Shown: positions 302 through 11,297 of the stretch, in pieces
How the letters are laid out: every line of letters begins with the position of its first letter
Numbering within the stretch: the stretch's first letter is position 1
Origin: a virus
IMG/VR virus record: IMGVR_UViG_3300037549_000096
Direction: 5' to 3' (one strand)
Length of the DNA stretch: 64,000 bases
Notes under the pieces: generated by a model
The model's input: the letters and a program-made list of their open reading frames with translations, nothing else
Told to the model about the DNA's origin: nothing
Database searches by the model: none
Made by a program: the position numbers and the translations under genes

Positions 302-3300
302 GATTAGCCTCTAAATATTTATTTAATTTATAAAATAGTTTTCCAATTTTGTATGGAATAGTAATAAACCAGAATAAAACCTTAATTAAAAATATAAATA
401 AAGTACTGTCTTTTTCTAATACCTCTTCATTTACTTCTCCCATTAAAAAGAAAATAGAAAACACAAAACCAAAAAGATAAATCTTTAAAGTAAGTAAAAC
501 TAATTCCATTTCGCTTGTCATAACGTCATTCTAAGAATGTATTCTTTTGCTTTCTTTGCATCTGTTTCATGAAATAGAGTAGGATGACCTTCGATCTTAT
601 GGTTGTTCATGAACCATTGACCAAATCTCAAAGGTCTTCCTAGCGCACACCATTGGTTATATTCATCACCAATTTGCCATGCCTCAAACATACGAGTTTG
701 AATTTGAAGATTCATACAAGTCCCGTATGTTGAATTGGTTGATTAGGGAAATGAATAAGTACTCGTGAAACACGCTTAATTTCATCATCATGTTCTACGT
801 GAATCACTTCTGCATCTACTTCGTATTTATCACATTGAATTGTATTTTCTGTAATTTTAACAGGGCCTAATGCTCGATGCATTAGAACATCGCCGGGTTT
901 AACTAGACTCACTTGTTTCTCCTTAAAAGTATGTAAATCGTTTTACATTAAGAGGATTAATAAAACCCCATGCTTTGAGATTGATTTGCTTATCGTAATC
1001 TGTTACTGAAATATCTAGATCTTTCTTATCAAAATAAACAAAAGTAATCCCCTGTCTTGCTTGTGTAATTTTGTAAGTTTGTTCATCAATTTTAAATAAA
1101 ACTTCAGAAATAAAACTAGAATTCGGATCAAGAACAATCCACCTTTTTTGAATATATTTATTCATTTGAGTAAAAACTTTTATAGCATGATCCCAGCGAG
1201 ACTTTTGAAGTTTATTCATCTTCATTTCCCTTAAAAATGATTTCAATACCATCATCTTCTAGACGCAATTCCACGATTGGTTGATTTTCTCGTTCTTGTA
1301 AAATACGAGTTAAACTATCCCAAGTAATGAATGATTTAGGTTCATCCTCATTACTATCGTTTGCAACCGCCTCTAGAAGATCTACAAAACGTTCGTTAAA
1401 TGTGACTCTCAATGGAATGCTCGTTTAAGAGCATCACAAAGTTCTGGAATAGGAATTTGCGAAGTATATTCACGGTTAAAATGCTTTTTAATAAATTCCA
1501 TGTATTCTTCACCACCTCCATCCATACCAAAACCCATAATAAATCCAATTTCAGACCAATCCATGCAGTATTTAAAGATATAAATCAAATACCCATGAGG
1601 TGAACAACTATCTCTAAGACAAGTATGATCATATGGATGTGTATTTTTTTTTAATTCTTGTACATTTTTCAAAAAATTGATCTGTATTTTTACAATTTTT
1701 ACTTGTTTTAAGAAGCCATACCCAACCAGTAGTACAAGGATCTGTTTCTTTTACAATTTGCTTGAATGTTTCGATATGCATTTTTAAAACCTTTCATAAA
1801 GATCTAAAAACTCTTCTTTATGTAATGTGGAAGGTTGATCTTGTGGTCTGGAAACAATACCAAACATTATAAAACCTCTATAATCAGCTTTGACTTCTAC
1901 GAGCGTTTTATTAAGTTTGTTTTTCCAGCAACCAAGATTCGATGGTTCTTTAAGAGCTTTGTGTGATGGGTATTTATGTCCACGTTCACAGATATCATTA
2001 CCATTAAGTCTACGTTCTCTAGCAAAACAAGCAGCACCACACTGAGGACAATAACCTAGTTCACTCATGATGCATAAGCTCCTTTACTAATAAGAAGATT
2101 AAGAGTATGAGGCCAACGAACTTGAACATCTGCTTTAATTTCAGCACGATGTTTTTCGTCTTCTCTTTCAGTATGGTTATGAATTTGTTCTAATTGTAGA
2201 GTGATTTCTTCTTTTTCTGATAGATACATGTAAATTCTCCTAAAAAGGTTTATTTAAAATATTAATCCCTCGCTTGAAGAACAATATCAAGACAAAGTTC
2301 TTTACCTTTTTCCGACATAGGTAAACCCTTCTTTTCCATATCTTCAAATGTCTTATTCATCCAATTTGTAAGAGACTGATCACGATGCTCTTTGGTTGGA
2401 TGAAGAATTTTCTGAGCTTCTTCAACCGTATTTGCAAATCCTAGAATTTCATAAGCTGAATAACGATTGTAATCACCTTCATATCCAGTAATGAATTCAT
2501 TTCCTTCTTTCTTATGATGAAGGACGATAAATGGCATAATACGAGCGTCCATTACTTTCTCCCAATCTTATTAGCTGTTTCTTTTTGAAGGGATGCACTC
2601 TTAAGCTTGGTTTCCATATCTTCAAAACAATGAAATTTATAAAGAGTAATCACTTCTTTTGTTCCCTGTCCTTCAAGTTGAACTAGCTTATAATGGTTTG
2701 TATCTTCACCGATAACTTTAAATATTCCATTACCAAAATTACGATCTTTATTAATCTTAACAATTTTCATATGTATCCTTTTTATAAAGAAAAGTTATCT
2801 TCATCTAATTGATAGTCTTCAAGATCCATACCAAGTGGCTTCCTTGGCTTAAGTTCAATACCTAGTTCCTTCATATATGCTTTAGTTCCTTCTTTATCAT
2901 TGATAAGATCAAGACGAAGAAGTTCACCCATTTGTTGAAGATGCTTAGTTTTGGTTCTTTTAAGTTTAAACGCAAATGCAAATGCACGTTCAAAAGCTTC
3001 ATGAAGTTCATAAATCAACTTAAGAACTTCGGCGTCTTTGTCTGATTCTAGTAGTTCTTTAGCCTGTATACAACGTAAAAGAAAATCTGATCTATTCGTT
3101 CCTTCAATCATATAAACCTCTAAATAAAATTATGTAAAGGAAATGTCAAGGGAGCTATCTCCCTTGCCTTGTTATTTGTTGATGATCTGAATGAATGAAA
3201 GCCCTTGTCTTTTGCCTTCTACGATTTTACTTCCAATCGCATAGGCAACGAACATGAGAACGGGAATCATGAGCAGTACTAAGAACTTTTCTGAAGTTCT

Positions 3301-3605
3301 TAGGGGAGGATTTTTCTTGAACATAAGCCTAGTTCCTCCATTAAAGGTTTGACTTGTGCCATAAAAATACATCGTCATGCCATCATCCTTTCTTCTTCAC
3401 ATGCTTTATTAACACACCATCGACAATCGTGATGATGACGTTCAAACTTCGCTGGTCCTTCGATAATCGCGTTATTAAGTTCATCATGAGAAAGAATACC
3501 GTCAATCATAACGACTGATAAATCTCTAGTAATACCACCTTTCCATGTTTCATTAGCTTGAAGAGTGATTAGAGTGATGTTTTCGGAAAGGCTTTCTTTT
3601 TGCAC
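273..3605 (-). other. cluster of ~14 small tightly packed hypothetical phage genes
   Basis: ORF track; overlapping ATGA/TAATG junctions and GGAG/GAGG RBSs; no recognisable domains. Confidence 0.75.
3147..3166 (-). terminator. putative intrinsic terminator
   Basis: caagggag-ctat-ctcccttg hairpin immediately after the stop of 3172..3378, with a T-rich tail on the minus strand. Confidence 0.55.
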
Positions 3606-3634
3606 AAATGCTCCTATTAAGTTTATTTAAACAA

Positions 3635-4315
3635 AGGGTGCCGATACTTAGACAGTCGGCAATTGTTTCTGTTCCTTATACAATAGGTTATATCCCTGTT
3701 TCCACCTATTGATGCTCTCGGTTTCTGTAGACGGAACAAATCGTCTGGGAATATGCTTAGGAGTAGCTTTGCGATAGGCGATGTTCTCGATCACCGTTCT
3801 GCTCTAAGAAACCCTAGTCATAAGCATTAACTTATGATATGTATCAAACTAGGGCTTCTTAGAACAGAAATAAGTCCGTTTTCTGGATATACGGACAAAC
3901 CCAAAGTCTTACATATACATAGCGGTATGGACCTTTTCGGTTTTCTCCATACTTCTAACGATGGTAAGTTGCTCCTCGTTAGCATGTTAACCCTCACATA
4001 TCTTTGATTCTGTGAGTTCCTACGCTTTTTCAGGGTATGCATCCCCTTATCTAACGTAGCAAGACGTTCCGTTTGCAGTAACGGTAGTGTCCCGAGCTTG
4101 TAATTTCCCTAACAGTGTGCCTCTGTTAGCAAAATTACTTAGCTGTTGTAGATCCACCTGTCCTACAGGCAATTAATGTATGGTTGATTATGACGCCTCC
4201 ACCATACACCGGAAACATAAAGTTTCCTGAATCTACTTCTCGGCTTTGAGCGCGCCACTTCCGAACTATATTAGCTTCGGAAGTGGCCCTAGCAGCCCTC
4301 CCATTAAGTAGGGAA
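3635..4315 (-). ncRNA. large structured non-coding RNA candidate, family unassigned
   Basis: GC-elevated intergenic block tiled by more than 12 stems, e.g. 3797-3818/3848-3869 (22 bp, both mismatches become G.U on the minus strand), 4254-4265/4276-4287 (12 bp perfect), 3639-3661, 3681-3711, 3874-3896, 3925-3952, 3955-3982, 3993-4016, 4100-4138, 4177-4208, 4211-4227. Confidence 0.75.
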
Positions 4316-4681
4316 TCACTGTGCAAGATATTCAATACCATCACTAGTAGTAATGGTTTGAATAGCTTTTGTTTCTTCTTTTGTTGGTGGACGATACAAA
4401 GCAGGACTAATCCTTTTTGTATGTCCACAATGTGAACAAGTTTCCATTACTTCTGGAGTAATGATAAATTTATCCATATCTGATCGCTTGATCAAGCCAA
4501 CATCTTCACCGTTAGTCTGGTCTACTGTATTACGCCAAACAATATCAGCGTTACAGTAAACGATACCTGTTTCAGAAGAAGCAGAAACCATATGATTGCA
4601 GATATCTGACTCACACAATGAATTTTGTGAAGTAAGATGTCCTTTCGAGCAAATTACATCATCGTAACCTTCAAAAGACAT
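4316..4681 (-). CDS. Cys/His-rich (zinc-ribbon-like) hypothetical protein
   Basis: CSKGH, CSHCG motifs; GGAGG RBS. Confidence 0.65.
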   Translation of the reverse strand: MSFEGYDDVICSKGHLTSQNSLCESDICNHMVSASSETGIVYCNADIVWRNTVDQTNGEDVGLIKRSDMDKFIITPEVMETCSHCGHTKRISPALYRPPTKEETKAIQTITTSDGIEYLAQ

Positions 4682-4741
4682 GTTACCTCCGAAGTTAAAA
4701 GAAAGAAACGTTCAAACGTAGATTAGTTATATTCCTTATCC

Positions 4742-4758
4742 ATACTTCTTATACCAGA
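4742..4758 (-). promoter_or_regulatory. putative phage promoter motif TCTGnTATAAGAAGTAT, copy 1
   Basis: 16/17 identical to the intergenic copy at 11371-11387; contains a TGnTATAAG extended -10-like core; lies upstream of a minus-strand gene start. Confidence 0.5.
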
Positions 4759-4759
4759 A

Positions 4760-6364
4760 TTAAGTCTTTATTTGCACGTAACTATTTCTTACATGAGCAG
4801 GACGAATAAAACGAATATAATCATAATTAATTAACTCAACAGAACCATTTCTTAACTCAACAATAGCCAATGTATGATGCATTGGAATATTATCTACTAA
4901 TTGTGAGTCAATAGTCCATTGATGAAAAGTAGCTTCCTCTACGTCTACTTTTACTCCTTCTACATACCTTTGGATCATGACTTTTCGCATATCATTCCTT
5001 ATTATTCTCTACTATATACTTCAATGCTTCTCTTTCTACCATTTGTTGAGCTAATGCTAACCAAGATGATCCAGTAAATTGAACCATTCTTCCCAACTCA
5101 CGAACTTTACCATTCTTAAGAATGCCTGTTTCTATCCATTCAAGTAATTCTTTAGCACATTCCACTCGATTTACATGAGTAAATAACTCAGCTTCATTCA
5201 TTAACTCTGAAGGTGTCATACAATCTCCGCAATATGCATCGTTGCGGATAGAAGTTTAACACTTTCATTTTGAGTAGATTCTGTAGGTTCCCAAAATTTA
5301 CCAGTTTGAAGATTAACTACACCAAACTTTGTATTAGGATAAACTAGTCGATTAGTTACGCATATTTCTACTCTCATAAGAATCTTATTATCTTCTGTTT
5401 TAAAGATTTGTCCAATCTCCATATGATGCATTTTGTATTTAGGGTATTGAACTGGAGGGTCTTCGATAAACCTAAGCACTCTGTCTCCTTTTTGTTATAA
5501 TGGTAGCATCTAGAAGAATGACTTTTTCGGAAAGCTGCTCCCTACTTGGATACATAACTAAACCTATATTAAGATTTAAAATGGCAGGAACATTATCTCT
5601 ATTCTGCACTTCAACTTTCATAAAATGACAATTTCCATGTTTAAAAATAACTCCTTTTGGTACATCTGCCATCATAACACCATTAGGAATAGGATCTTCT
5701 TCCACAAACTTGATACTAGTCATTTTAGTCCTTTGAGAGTATTGGTGAAGCATTAAACTTCTCCATCATCAAATACGTGATATACCAAACTACCACCTTG
5801 TAATTGGAATGTTCCAATATAGTGACTCGGCCATTTTTCTCTATGATAATTTGTTTCTATGATAATAATTTTTCGTTTTACATAAATAGTTGATTCAAAG
5901 GCTACCCAAATTTGAGGTAAGCCATCTTGAATTTGTACACATAAAATCTGTGCAAAAGCTGGCATTTCAATTTCTTGATTATCAACAATGCTTAATGTGT
6001 ATTTGTATATTTGCATCATGTTCCTTTCTTAGCAAACAAGTTTCAAAATCACATAATGGAGTACATACATTAGTGCAATTTTGTTTTAAATGTAACTTAC
6101 AGCTAAAGAATGGGTCAGTCTCCATCCATTTTAAGATTGTGAGAGACATTTTGGTTTCCTTATAGAAGGTTTAATATATTTCATAATAAAATCAGGATCA
6201 TTTAAAACAATATGATTATATGGGTCATTTATATCGGCTCCAATGGTCAAAATCCACATATCTTGCTCAAATCTCGCCGTTAATGGCTGGCTCCAATTGA
6301 TCTTGAATATCAGATACACTTTCTTCGGGATAACTTTCATCTTTGATACAGGTATCCACTTCAT
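4760..6364 (-). other. cluster of small hypothetical genes, including the paralog pair 5216..5479 and 5472..5753
   Basis: ORF track; shared F(I/V)E(E)DP..IFK..M(R/K)VE..NL..G..V.LL.AT pattern in the pair. Confidence 0.65.
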
Positions 6365-7755: not shown

Positions 7756-9373
7756 AGAAGTATACGTATGGCTCTTAATTGTTCATTGGTTAATTCAATT
7801 GTTTTAATTCTAACATCAGCCAAAGTAGAAGGAGTGTTAGGTAAACATCGTGTCGTAAATTCTTCCCATATCGGAAATCTATAACCACGAAACTCATCAG
7901 TCATTTCAATGAGCTGATCTAATGCATGACCCATTTCTATCTTCATTGTAAAACGACCTTCTTTTACTCCTTGTCTACGCCATAATTGTTGAAGATTTGC
8001 GTATTCATGATCTGAGAATGATGGCATTAGATTTCCTCATGTTTATAAAATTGTTTAAATGTCCATTTCTCTATCATGAATATCATTTTATTAAAAGACG
8101 GATTGTTTAAGAGTAAATTTTTAGTCTTCCAATCTTCACGTTTATAAATTTTATGTATTAATTTACGTCTAATACGAAAAATTAATGTAACTCTTATTGC
8201 TACTAATATTAATAATGATTCAATTACTAATAATATAATTATCATGAGATTTCCTCATGTTCGATACGTGGATAATTCACACGAAAATCTTTAAGATGCC
8301 CATTCTTACAGGTGTGTTCATAAAGTGGTGGATAAAGCGTGAATACTGATCCTGTTGGACTCATTAATTCTTCACATACATCACAATGATAGTTTATTGC
8401 ATAGGTTTTTACTTCTTTCTTGATTTCGGGCATGATTACTCCGCTAATTTATTAAATAAAGCTTCGTTTGTTTTATACTCTTCTGAATCAGGTAATGGAC
8501 CTGTATATTCTAGATATTCTTTTACAGTATAACCAATAATAATTGCAAGTAGACTTACTGGATCTCTCCCATTAACAGCTTCGTTAGAAGGAGAATATAA
8601 ATGAGTCCAAGGTCCAGCTGTATTATCTCGTAGAATTGTAATCTTAAGATGATCAAGAGGATCTTTCCATCCTGGCTTTCTTAGTCTTTCGATACCTAAC
8701 TCTGCGGCTTCTTTGATCGAGATTAGATTCATTCTGTTTCCTTTTTGATTTGACTCTCGAAACAAGTAAAACCAACTGGATGATTATCTTTATCGTAAAG
8801 AAGATAACCAGTTAATGTAGCTGGAACTTTCTTTACAGCTAATTCTTCATCTTCTAACCCAATTGTCATTGAAGCTGAATAAAGAAAAAGAGGATCATCT
8901 ATATAAGGAAGTGAATGAATAAAACCACCTTGCAAAAGAAACGAAGCAAACGTTTCCATATTATCCATATTAATTTTTACACCTGAAGGTAAGGCTTCTG
9001 TAAGAGCTTTTTTAATTTCTTCATGTGAAGGTGGACGATTTTCTGGATCTGTAAAGAACTCTGGCATTTATTCTCCTTAAAGATAAATAAAATTCTCTTC
9101 TGTTGGATATAATGCGTCTTCTGCTCTAGATTGAGCCATTGCTTGTAGTTCGTCTTTGCATGTATCCATTATATATTCTTCTGCAAACCAAGGTGTTTGC
9201 ATTTTATCAGCTTCTAAATTAGCTTTATCAATTCTAGCTTGAAGATCAGAATTATTTAATTCATCATTAAACCTAATAGCTCCTTCAGTGATTGATTTAA
9301 GTAAATTACTTAGACATATTTTAACTGCTGTTTGTTTTAGTTCGTCTGATAGATCGTTGTAAGTGCGGATCAT
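7728..9373 (-). other. cluster of six small hypothetical genes
   Basis: ORF track, packed head to tail. Confidence 0.65.
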
Positions 9374-10778: not shown

Positions 10779-11114
10779 TTAGCGTAGAGGTTTCCATCGA
10801 GTTTGAGTATTAACTATTTTACGAGCCTTTTTGATGATCTTGTGAGAATTGACGTATTCATTTAAAAATGTTATAGCATCATTCATCTTTTTAGGTTTAA
10901 GGAACTCAATACGAATTCCAGTTTTTGAAAAATGTTGAAGATATAGACCACTTTCTGTCATTTGTTCATCATTATAAAAAAATAAATCACTAATTATAGC
11001 AAGTAATACAGAACTTGGTTTACTGATAATCCAATTGTGGCGATTATCACTTTTCATTACATGTACATCGATATGATGAAAGTCATCACGGCTCCAAAGT
11101 TGCGATCCCCACAT
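10779..11114 (-). CDS. hypothetical protein (true start may be the downstream MKSDN)
   Basis: ORF track. Confidence 0.55.
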   Translation of the reverse strand: MWGSQLWSRDDFHHIDVHVMKSDNRHNWIISKPSSVLLAIISDLFFYNDEQMTESGLYLQHFSKTGIRIEFLKPKKMNDAITFLNEYVNSHKIIKKARKIVNTQTRWKPLR

Positions 11115-11144
11115 ATCGTACCAGATATGCAGGGATCGCGGTTA

Positions 11145-11297
11145 TTAGATGTTAGCGAAAACCAAATCCTTTCCGCTATCTATTCTATTAAACTCTTGAT
11201 GCAACTCAACAGCGCGAGTATAACTCACGCACATTGAGGTCATGATTTGATGAATTTCAAGCTCTTTCTGACGATCTGATTCCTTACGTCCAGCCAT
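11145..11297 (-). CDS. small hypothetical protein (50 aa, MAGRKESDRQ...)
   Basis: AGGAG RBS upstream of the ATG; first gene after the promoter-like motif; below the track length cut-off. Confidence 0.6.
   Translation of the reverse strand: MAGRKESDRQKELEIHQIMTSMCVSYTRAVELHQEFNRIDSGKDLVFANI

Follow-up and report, generated by a model that had tools for sequence, protein, structure and literature searches.

A conserved structured RNA locus without an Rfam match in a divergent uncultivated phage

What does a phage keep in an interval of 710 nt that holds no gene, in a region where its genes otherwise abut one another? The question is raised by positions 3606-4315 of the window, by which we mean the whole 64,000-nt stretch of DNA that was analysed. 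This stretch corresponds to bases 44228-108227, reverse-complemented, of an IMG/VR phage record that is 168,567 bp long and rated complete. The gap is bounded on one side by the stop of a 121-aa gene and on the other by a 76-aa gene with a GTG start, and the genes around it are all on the window minus strand, abutting one another.

RNAs that are both large and intricately folded are rare, and nearly all known classes of them have functions that are either unknown or remarkable; two of them, GOLLD and ROOL, were recently shown to form RNA-only cages. An initial annotation, made from the sequence alone, had proposed that the gap specifies either a divergent member of one of these two classes or a new large phage RNA, and it is the latter half of this proposal that stood, since neither the window nor the related loci gave a match to the GOLLD or ROOL models of Rfam. 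We hold with high confidence that 3629-4319, read on the minus strand, is a conserved structured RNA, and we consider it very likely that this RNA constitutes a new family, in the sense of being absent from Rfam, that is common to a small clade of uncultivated phages.

The gap, its neighbours and its relatives

The locus and the genes that bracket it are as follows.

3629-4319, minus strand: the whole conserved RNA locus of ~690 nt, defined by homology with contig L010, a folding z-score of -10.5 and the lack of an Rfam match
4316-4681, minus strand: the upstream gene, encoding a Cys/His-rich protein of 121 aa without a named family in Pfam or PHROG
3375-3605, minus strand: the downstream gene, encoding 76 aa from a GTG start, with an AGGAG ribosome-binding site at 3611-3615

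The raised GC that the initial annotation had noted in this block, among genes that overlap or abut, was confirmed, the gap having a GC content of 0.40-0.45 vs about 0.29-0.36 on its flanks. The upstream gene is whole and, as judged from its protein matches, one of a large family that is uncharacterised (at E<=0.001 its cluster representatives number 352, and nearly all of the 150 listed are about 90-140 aa long). Its one close homologue is encoded on a 4.3-kb ENA contig (L002), and the nearest homologues in other phages are not accompanied by the 700-nt gap. The sole match of the 76-aa protein was an identical protein. A Logan contig (L003) proved to be the same phage at 100% identity, and the phage itself is very divergent: a Pfam scan of ten large ORFs returned only a beta-helix and a DnaJ domain, a PHROGs scan of ten ORFs gave a single match, to a tail protein, and a tblastn search of GenBank phages with a protein of 1122 aa gave no match.

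Relatives of the RNA were found on four metagenomic phage contigs (L002, L010, L014 and L016), and the known sequences therefore number five, representing about three independent lineages. Contig L010 carries the full RNA at 2073-2890, with RNA positions 7-444 and 440-688 aligning at about 84% (RNA position n corresponds to window position 4316-n), and the homology spans from just before a common GTGATTCCC to an invariant CCCTTTGTTT. Contig L002, which was reached via its homologue of the 121-aa protein, contains the first 165 nt of the RNA and then ends, while L014 and L016 contain RNA 511-688 only, at about 82% identity. The syntenic contigs were reached via a conserved protein of 109 aa encoded 0.5 kb downstream (window 2782-3111); synteny holds across the wider region, and the genes immediately flanking the RNA are non-homologous from phage to phage. 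A covariance model of the 3' module (R1) located exactly one copy each in the window phage, L010, L014 and L016 and none elsewhere in the phage genome or in the other loci, with which profile HMMs agreed, and BLAST, nhmmer and the covariance model all failed to reveal a paralogue of the RNA in its own genome.

The RNA is as conserved as the best neighbouring gene, its identity to L010 and L014 being 80-87%, where the best neighbour gene has 80-84% and the others 70-73%. The 5' domain is 80% identical to L010 and 92% to L002, and in L002 identity amounts to 92% over the RNA part vs 87% over the adjacent gene, in which the changes fall mostly at third-codon positions. The L002 copy of the 121-aa gene (L002:3754-4263) has a 1-nt deletion after codon 94, as a result of which the gene caller read through the RNA and a 'protein' of 169 aa was reported; the deletion may reflect either a genuine frameshift or a fault in the assembly.

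Searches of wider collections added no further members. A blastn search of GenBank phages with 3300-4800 gave no match, and no relatives were found in IMG/VR via the two flanking proteins, two DNA words from the RNA, one further word or a gapped invariant pattern, nor by a profile search there with the family of the 109-aa neighbour. The matches that did surface were rejected: the gapped pattern GGGATATAAC..ATAAGGAAC gave three in IMG/VR, each at the end of a coding gene and non-homologous, a gapped pattern gave four in GTDB genomes, of which only one was even a weak partial match to the model, inside an ORF of 368 aa, and a 21-mer scan of JGI metagenomes gave two, both of them chance matches in high-GC bacterial genes.

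The initial annotation had seen no signatures of tRNA, tmRNA, RNase P or introns in the block, and the model searches agreed. Scanning the whole window with the 4227 families of Rfam 15 (cmscan) gave no match at gathering score, and relaxing the threshold up to E=10 on 3300-4800 gave noise only, and the L010 copy, at thresholds up to E=5, likewise gave nothing beyond noise; across seven related loci the gathering scores yielded one tRNA and nothing else. The ROOL model (RF03087; gathering 99.1 bits) did not match in the window at gathering, on 3300-4800 at E<=10 or in L010, and when the model was run directly against the phage genome as a whole at E<=10 the result was likewise empty, the controls of that search also being without signal. 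The GOLLD model (RF01998) did not match at gathering, at E<=10 on the locus or at E<=5 on L010. Neither Rfam models nor ARAGORN found a tRNA, tmRNA, RNase P, SRP or 6S RNA at the locus, and group I and II intron models found nothing at E<=10 on 3300-4800. The idea that the block is an intron splitting a gene was rejected, given that the upstream gene is a complete, full-length member of its family and that the 121-aa and 76-aa proteins have no similarity to each other.

Several functional classes were set aside on similar grounds. A Y RNA/Ro60 system found no counterpart, there being no TROVE or RtcB protein in the phage and no Rfam (YrlA) match, and a retron or DGR non-coding RNA was rejected because the complete phage genome is without a reverse transcriptase (RVT_1) in a search whose positive controls gave signal. 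A role as a CsrA sponge was rejected, the GGA motifs numbering 18 (counted by eye) vs about 12 expected and lying mostly in stems, as was one as a ribosome sponge, one of the Shine-Dalgarno-like GGAGG motifs being lost in L010.

The coding potential of the gap is confined to short ORFs, none of them conserved. The two that overlap the block in the window, 3827-4042 (71 aa) and 4135-4428 (97 aa), had been named in the initial annotation as a possible coding alternative; both are without a counterpart in L010, where the only sense-strand ORFs lying wholly inside the RNA are of 37 and 46 aa, and in L002 the match to 4135-4428 changes frame at an indel.

The genome carries further RNA genes at a distance from the gap. 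Six tRNAs (Arg, Leu, Met, Asn, Gln and Lys) and a tmRNA lie at C1:114978-120067 of the phage's own genome, 7-12 kb beyond window position 1; the tmRNA has an unusual tag of 23 residues ending in ALKAA, and around these genes there are gene-poor gaps of 598 and 1095 nt with 40% GC. Another relative, contig L018, has gene-free gaps of 0.9 and 1.2 kb (L018:973-1876 and L018:2642-3849), the latter with a tRNA at 3412-3491 and a first 770 nt that fold with z -3.6.

Folding, strand and compensatory changes

The dense structure described in the initial annotation is borne out by the folding energies. As the minus strand the gap folds to -247.4 kcal/mol, vs -178.0 ± 6.6 kcal/mol for dinucleotide shuffles (z -10.5), and the full-length homologue of L010 gives z -8.3. 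In a genome-wide scan with 150-nt segments (168 kb), segments of the gap rank 2nd and 9th in GC-corrected folding energy. The 1st and 3rd places in the same scan are held by 8551-8700 of the phage's own genome and by window 11103-11252 (own genome 96976-97125).

Individual helices were recovered as well. The 22-bp helix at 3797-3818/3848-3869 is present, its 22-nt arms being 91% complementary and enclosing an inner 8-bp hairpin at 3818-3837 in the minus-strand fold, and both of its mismatches are G.U on the minus strand, as had been claimed; the perfect 12-bp helix is likewise found, at 4254-4265/4276-4287. The GNRA-like loops that had been suggested did not materialise, there being zero GNRA tetraloops among the hairpin loops predicted in the minus-strand fold.

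An A.C mismatch on one strand would be a G.U pair on the opposite strand. The full minus-strand fold contains 14 G.U, 4 G.G and 1 G.A within its helices, and zero A.C. The plus strand folds to -227.6 kcal/mol (z -8.9), and with the pair span limited to 80 nt the minus strand reaches -223 kcal/mol with 23 G.U and the plus strand -198 kcal/mol with 10 G.U, the minus strand of the window folding 20-25 kcal/mol better than the plus strand. L010 shows little of this asymmetry, and in the short L014 module it runs the other way. The sense of the RNA is that of the surrounding genes in 4/4 genomic contexts, all on the minus strand in the window, in keeping with the co-orientation noted at the outset. 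We therefore assign the RNA to the minus strand with moderate confidence.

Comparison of the homologues showed that helices have been kept through compensatory change. When the pairs of the window MFE fold were followed into L010, 140 were unchanged, 11 were kept by a one-sided change, 16 by a two-sided change, and 22 were broken; several of these last we read as an indel-shifted alignment register in one hairpin or as weak long-range pairs. Put differently, 18 pairs have changed on both sides, 16 of which still pair and 2 of which have lost pairing, and paired and unpaired positions change at about an equal rate. In the 5' domain (alignment A5; window, L010 and L002) 99.1% of cells are paired and 7 pairs have changed on both sides, and sliding the partners by 1-3 columns leaves 35-42% paired with 0-1 two-sided changes. 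In the 3' module (alignment A6; four sequences) 99.4% of cells are paired with 8 two-sided changes, a result reached by 0/500 shuffles, and the slid controls have 0-1 two-sided changes. Over both alignments 99% of cells are paired, vs about 28-42% with slid partners. The 22-bp hairpin has, relative to L010, 3 two-sided changes that keep pairing, 1 change of G.U to G-C and 1 broken pair. In L002 no predicted helix is broken, most of the substitutions lying in loops or unpaired stretches and those in stems comprising one compensated pair and one change of G.U to A-U. The statistics of covariation are thin, since they draw on only five sequences from about three independent lineages.

Folding excess, conservation, compensatory changes and the lack of a conserved ORF, which are the generic marks of a structured RNA, are all found at this locus. 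The three outcomes that the initial annotation had named as fatal to its proposal (no folding excess, no covariation, or conserved overlapping ORFs) were each looked for and did not occur.

Anatomy and transcription context

The RNA is divided, on the minus strand, into the following parts.

3986-4315, minus strand: 5' domain, a chain of stable hairpins (RNA 1-330)
4037-4077, minus strand: candidate kissing loops, with self-complementary TGCA (4074-4077) and ATGCAT (4037-4042) in neighbouring hairpin loops
3870-3985, minus strand: variable middle (RNA 331-446), rearranged in L010
3797-3869, minus strand: 22-bp helix with the inner 8-bp hairpin (RNA 447-519), its 3' arm overlapping the 5' strand of P1
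3629-3805, minus strand: 3' core module of about 176 nt (RNA 511-687)
3690-3754, minus strand: candidate pseudoknot of ATATTCC (3748-3754) with GGGATAT (3690-3696), 7 pairs including one G.U
3629-3661, minus strand: last hairpin, TGCCGA/TCGGCA, followed by CCC and TTTGTTT, with one compensatory pair (C-G to U-A)

The 5' domain starts with a short hairpin, followed by the 12-bp helix (4254-4287), a 'cloverleaf' of three hairpins closed by an 8-bp helix (4148-4236), and four more hairpins (4100-4138, 4060-4094, 4020-4059 and 3993-4016). The cloverleaf is not tRNA-like to ARAGORN, which found nothing there even with relaxed thresholds. One 44-nt stretch of the domain is identical between the window and L002 and has two differences in L010. 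The TGCA and ATGCAT motifs are kept in L010 and the stems of both loops covary; the two loops are candidates for a kissing interaction. In the MFE fold RNA 20-26 pairs with the ribosome-binding site of the 76-aa gene; this pairing was discarded, two positions of its 5' strand being changed in L002, and would be unsupported unless the 3' strand, which lies outside the L002 contig, compensates.

The middle of the RNA is where the phages differ most in layout. The hairpins at 3955-3982 and 3925-3952 are private to the window phage, and L010 has different hairpins here together with about 170 extra nt; a block of 36 nt (3873-3908, RNA 408-443), which holds the hairpin 3874-3896, is conserved at 97% vs L010.

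By RNAalifold the 3' core is closed by a helix, P1, and further contains four covarying hairpins along with long unpaired runs that are invariant. P1 is formed by AAGCAGA with UUUGUUU and is invariant, and since P1 and the 22-bp helix (through its 3' arm) draw on one and the same AGCAGAA strand, the two are mutually exclusive in the window phage and in L010. The folding energy of the core alone is ordinary (z -0.9 for the L014 copy), unlike that of the 5' part; its conservation resides in the sequence, as in ligand- or protein-binding RNAs. The GGGATAT of the candidate pseudoknot sits in a hairpin loop, and both of its stretches are invariant in 4/4 sequences, so that this pairing, which we infer from complementarity, is one on which covariation has no bearing. 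The end of the core, at 3629-3661, may serve as a weak terminator or else contribute the 3' strand of P1, and it is absent from the calls of the terminator scan.

By these comparisons the RNA is modular, and the 3' core would be its conserved functional unit: it stands solo in some relatives, and in the window phage and L010 it is preceded by the 330-nt hairpin chain, the variable middle and the 22-bp helix. A direct repeat of about 40 nt brackets the solitary 3' module in L014 (2460-2710). The 14-nt core of this repeat, GACCGAAGCAGAAC, occurs twice in L014, and the extent of the repeat beyond that core was read from the alignment; the repeat suggests insertion or duplication by recombination.

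Three short elements bear on the transcription of the locus.

4748-4756, minus strand: extended -10-like box TGgTATAAG, read in the 78-nt spacer before the 121-aa gene
4326-4335, minus strand: TTGAATATCT motif, about 10 nt before the RNA 5' edge, in the last codons of the 121-aa gene
3147-3166, minus strand: terminator-like hairpin after a 68-aa gene, called in the terminator scan

The promoter-like motif that had been placed at 4742 corresponds to the TGgTATAAG box, which can be read by eye and was uncalled by a sigma-70 scan, and a search with the pattern TTGAC-17-TGnTAnnnT gave no site near the locus. Judging from the sequence, the box is probably the promoter of the unit and the hairpin at 3147-3166 probably its end, and the simplest reading would be one early transcript of the 121-aa gene, the RNA, the 76-aa gene and the 68-aa gene. 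No clear promoter or canonical terminator of the RNA's own was found. In L010 the RNA lies 110 nt from the preceding gene and has TATAAG before it, and in L014 a terminator-like hairpin precedes the module, and the RNA may therefore have its own start. The 10-mer TTGARTATCT closely precedes the RNA in both the window and L002, and in L014 and L016 it closely precedes the solitary 3' module; these loci contain no other copy of it. The idea that it is a promoter used throughout the phage was rejected, other near-matches being scattered and nearly all inside coding sequence. At the ends of the gap there is a 12-nt near-repeat (11/12; 3611-3622 and 4298-4309), which is within chance expectation and whose 5' copy differs in L002. 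On the related contig L021, boxes resembling TGgTATAAG (TGTTATAAT) flank a gene-free gap of 714 nt (L021:7804-8517; z -7.1), together with GC-rich hairpins; this gap is non-homologous to the new RNA and may be another structured RNA gene.

Explanations and comparison with known systems

The best explanation overall, to which we give a probability of about 0.55, is that the locus is the gene for a non-Rfam structured non-coding RNA of ~690 nt that is made early, is stable and acts in trans. The extended -10 box that precedes the 121-aa gene would drive transcription of the RNA together with the early/accessory genes; stability would come from the long perfect helices, which are probably also sites for RNase III, by which the RNA would be released from the polycistronic transcript; and the stable RNA might then bind a protein or host factor via its core, in host take-over or counter-defence. 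Co-transcription, processing and action in trans are all inferred here, and that the RNA works as a stable trans-acting molecule is, taken by itself, a claim to which we give slightly less than even odds. No partner protein is linked to the RNA.

The RNA lies directly against the stop codon of the upstream gene, and 24 nt separate its end from the start codon that follows, a placement that would also fit a cis-acting element within the early operon, whether a processive antiterminator (such as HK022 put, or EAR-like), a block that processes or stabilises the mRNA through RNase III sites or 3' protective hairpins, or a translational or transcriptional control of the next gene. We regard this as unlikely, if the most serious of the rivals. 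It would account for the position of the RNA inside a string of same-strand genes without a clear promoter or terminator of its own, for the 3' core ending 24-108 nt before a gene start in 4/4 phages, for the terminator-like hairpin (3147-3166) two genes later, and for the switch-like competition of the 22-bp helix base and P1 for the AGCAGAA strand. However, the downstream genes are non-homologous between phages, consistent downstream terminators are not seen in L010 or L014, at 690 nt the RNA is about tenfold larger than known antiterminator RNAs, and the invariant unpaired stretches with the possible pseudoknot exceed the needs of stability hairpins. It is improbable, in our view, that the locus is a mobile or selfish cassette (an ORF-less intron, ribozyme-like RNA or recombination cassette) of little benefit to the phages, even though it occupies a hypervariable island and has other neighbours in every phage, the 3' module is alone in L014 and L016 with a direct repeat on both sides, TTGARTATCT recurs at the 5' edge in unrelated contexts, a 12-nt near-repeat marks both gap ends, and the nearest homologues of the upstream gene are without the 700-nt gap. 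Searches up to E=10 gave no group I or II intron signal, no gene is interrupted, the upstream one being complete, the phage is without reverse transcriptase and has one copy of the RNA per genome, and the end repeat is within chance, its 5' copy differing in L002.

A very divergent relative of GOLLD or ROOL is a highly improbable identity for the RNA: size class, phage origin, the number of helices and a genome with tRNAs and tmRNA would suit it, as would the conserved self-complementary loops TGCA and ATGCAT, which could mediate RNA-RNA contacts, but neither model matches at any threshold tried, the architecture is a string of local hairpins with a compact 3' core, and the tRNA cluster is 10 kb off and not adjacent. 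Just as remote is a feature of the DNA itself (an origin, packaging site or cruciform cluster) or a decayed coding sequence with incidental hairpins. That the plus strand also beats shuffles (z -8.9) and that the strand asymmetry of L010 is weak would favour it; against this, the helices of the window tolerate G.U and not A.C, most of the pairs changed on both sides still pair, repeats and an AT-rich unwinding element are lacking, and no ORF remnants are held in common with L010. A bolder version of the RNA reading is a long shot: the 176-nt core would be a new, autonomous, horizontally moving fold (binding a ligand, RNA polymerase or a protein, or acting as a ribozyme) built on a five-way junction and pseudoknot, and a 500-nt hairpin scaffold, acquired in this phage, would let the RNA self-assemble into a multimeric particle via its conserved self-complementary loops, in which case RNA-only assemblies would have arisen in a third lineage, independent of GOLLD and ROOL.

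Returning to the reading that we prefer, that of a stable structured RNA made early, the closest comparison is with ROOL (RF03087) and GOLLD (RF01998), which are homo-oligomeric RNA-only assemblies (PMC12286853). Like these, the new RNA is phage-borne, in the class of 600-800 nt, rich in helices, non-coding and of unknown function, its phage also carries tRNAs, and its conserved self-complementary loops might allow self-association. Unlike them, it matches neither model, does not lie beside the tRNAs, is laid out as a hairpin chain with a separable 176-nt core, and comes from about five metagenomic contigs only. With HK022 putL/putR it shares the situation of a structured RNA in an early phage unit upstream of many same-strand genes, as well as a sequence conservation that exceeds the needs of pairing; put RNAs are of about 70 nt with two stem-loops, in contrast to a core of 176 nt or a whole of 690 nt, there is no homology between them and other processive antiterminator RNAs or the new RNA, and no consistent downstream terminators were found in the relatives. 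The long near-perfect helices (12, 15 and 22 bp), on the coding strand between early genes, recall the T7 R-sites, the lambda N leader and sib, although RNase III hairpins are single and of about 60 nt, whereas here 15 or more helices extend across 700 nt and accompany a conserved non-helical core.

Finally, the locus resembles the candidates in the catalogue of structured RNAs from viral metagenomes (Fremin, Bhatt and Kyrpides 2023, PMC10690425), which are mostly tRNA-like structures, terminators and 5' leaders, in being a conserved, covarying intergenic region of uncultivated phages. The new family, new relative to Rfam 15, belongs among the large structured phage RNAs of unknown function, and while its known distribution is narrow, it adds to them a well-delimited and modular member with a covariation-supported structure and a core that is tractable at 176 nt, set in the early/accessory island of a very divergent 168-kb phage with tRNAs and tmRNA. 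It thus offers both a concrete target to synthesise and a seed alignment for wider searches.
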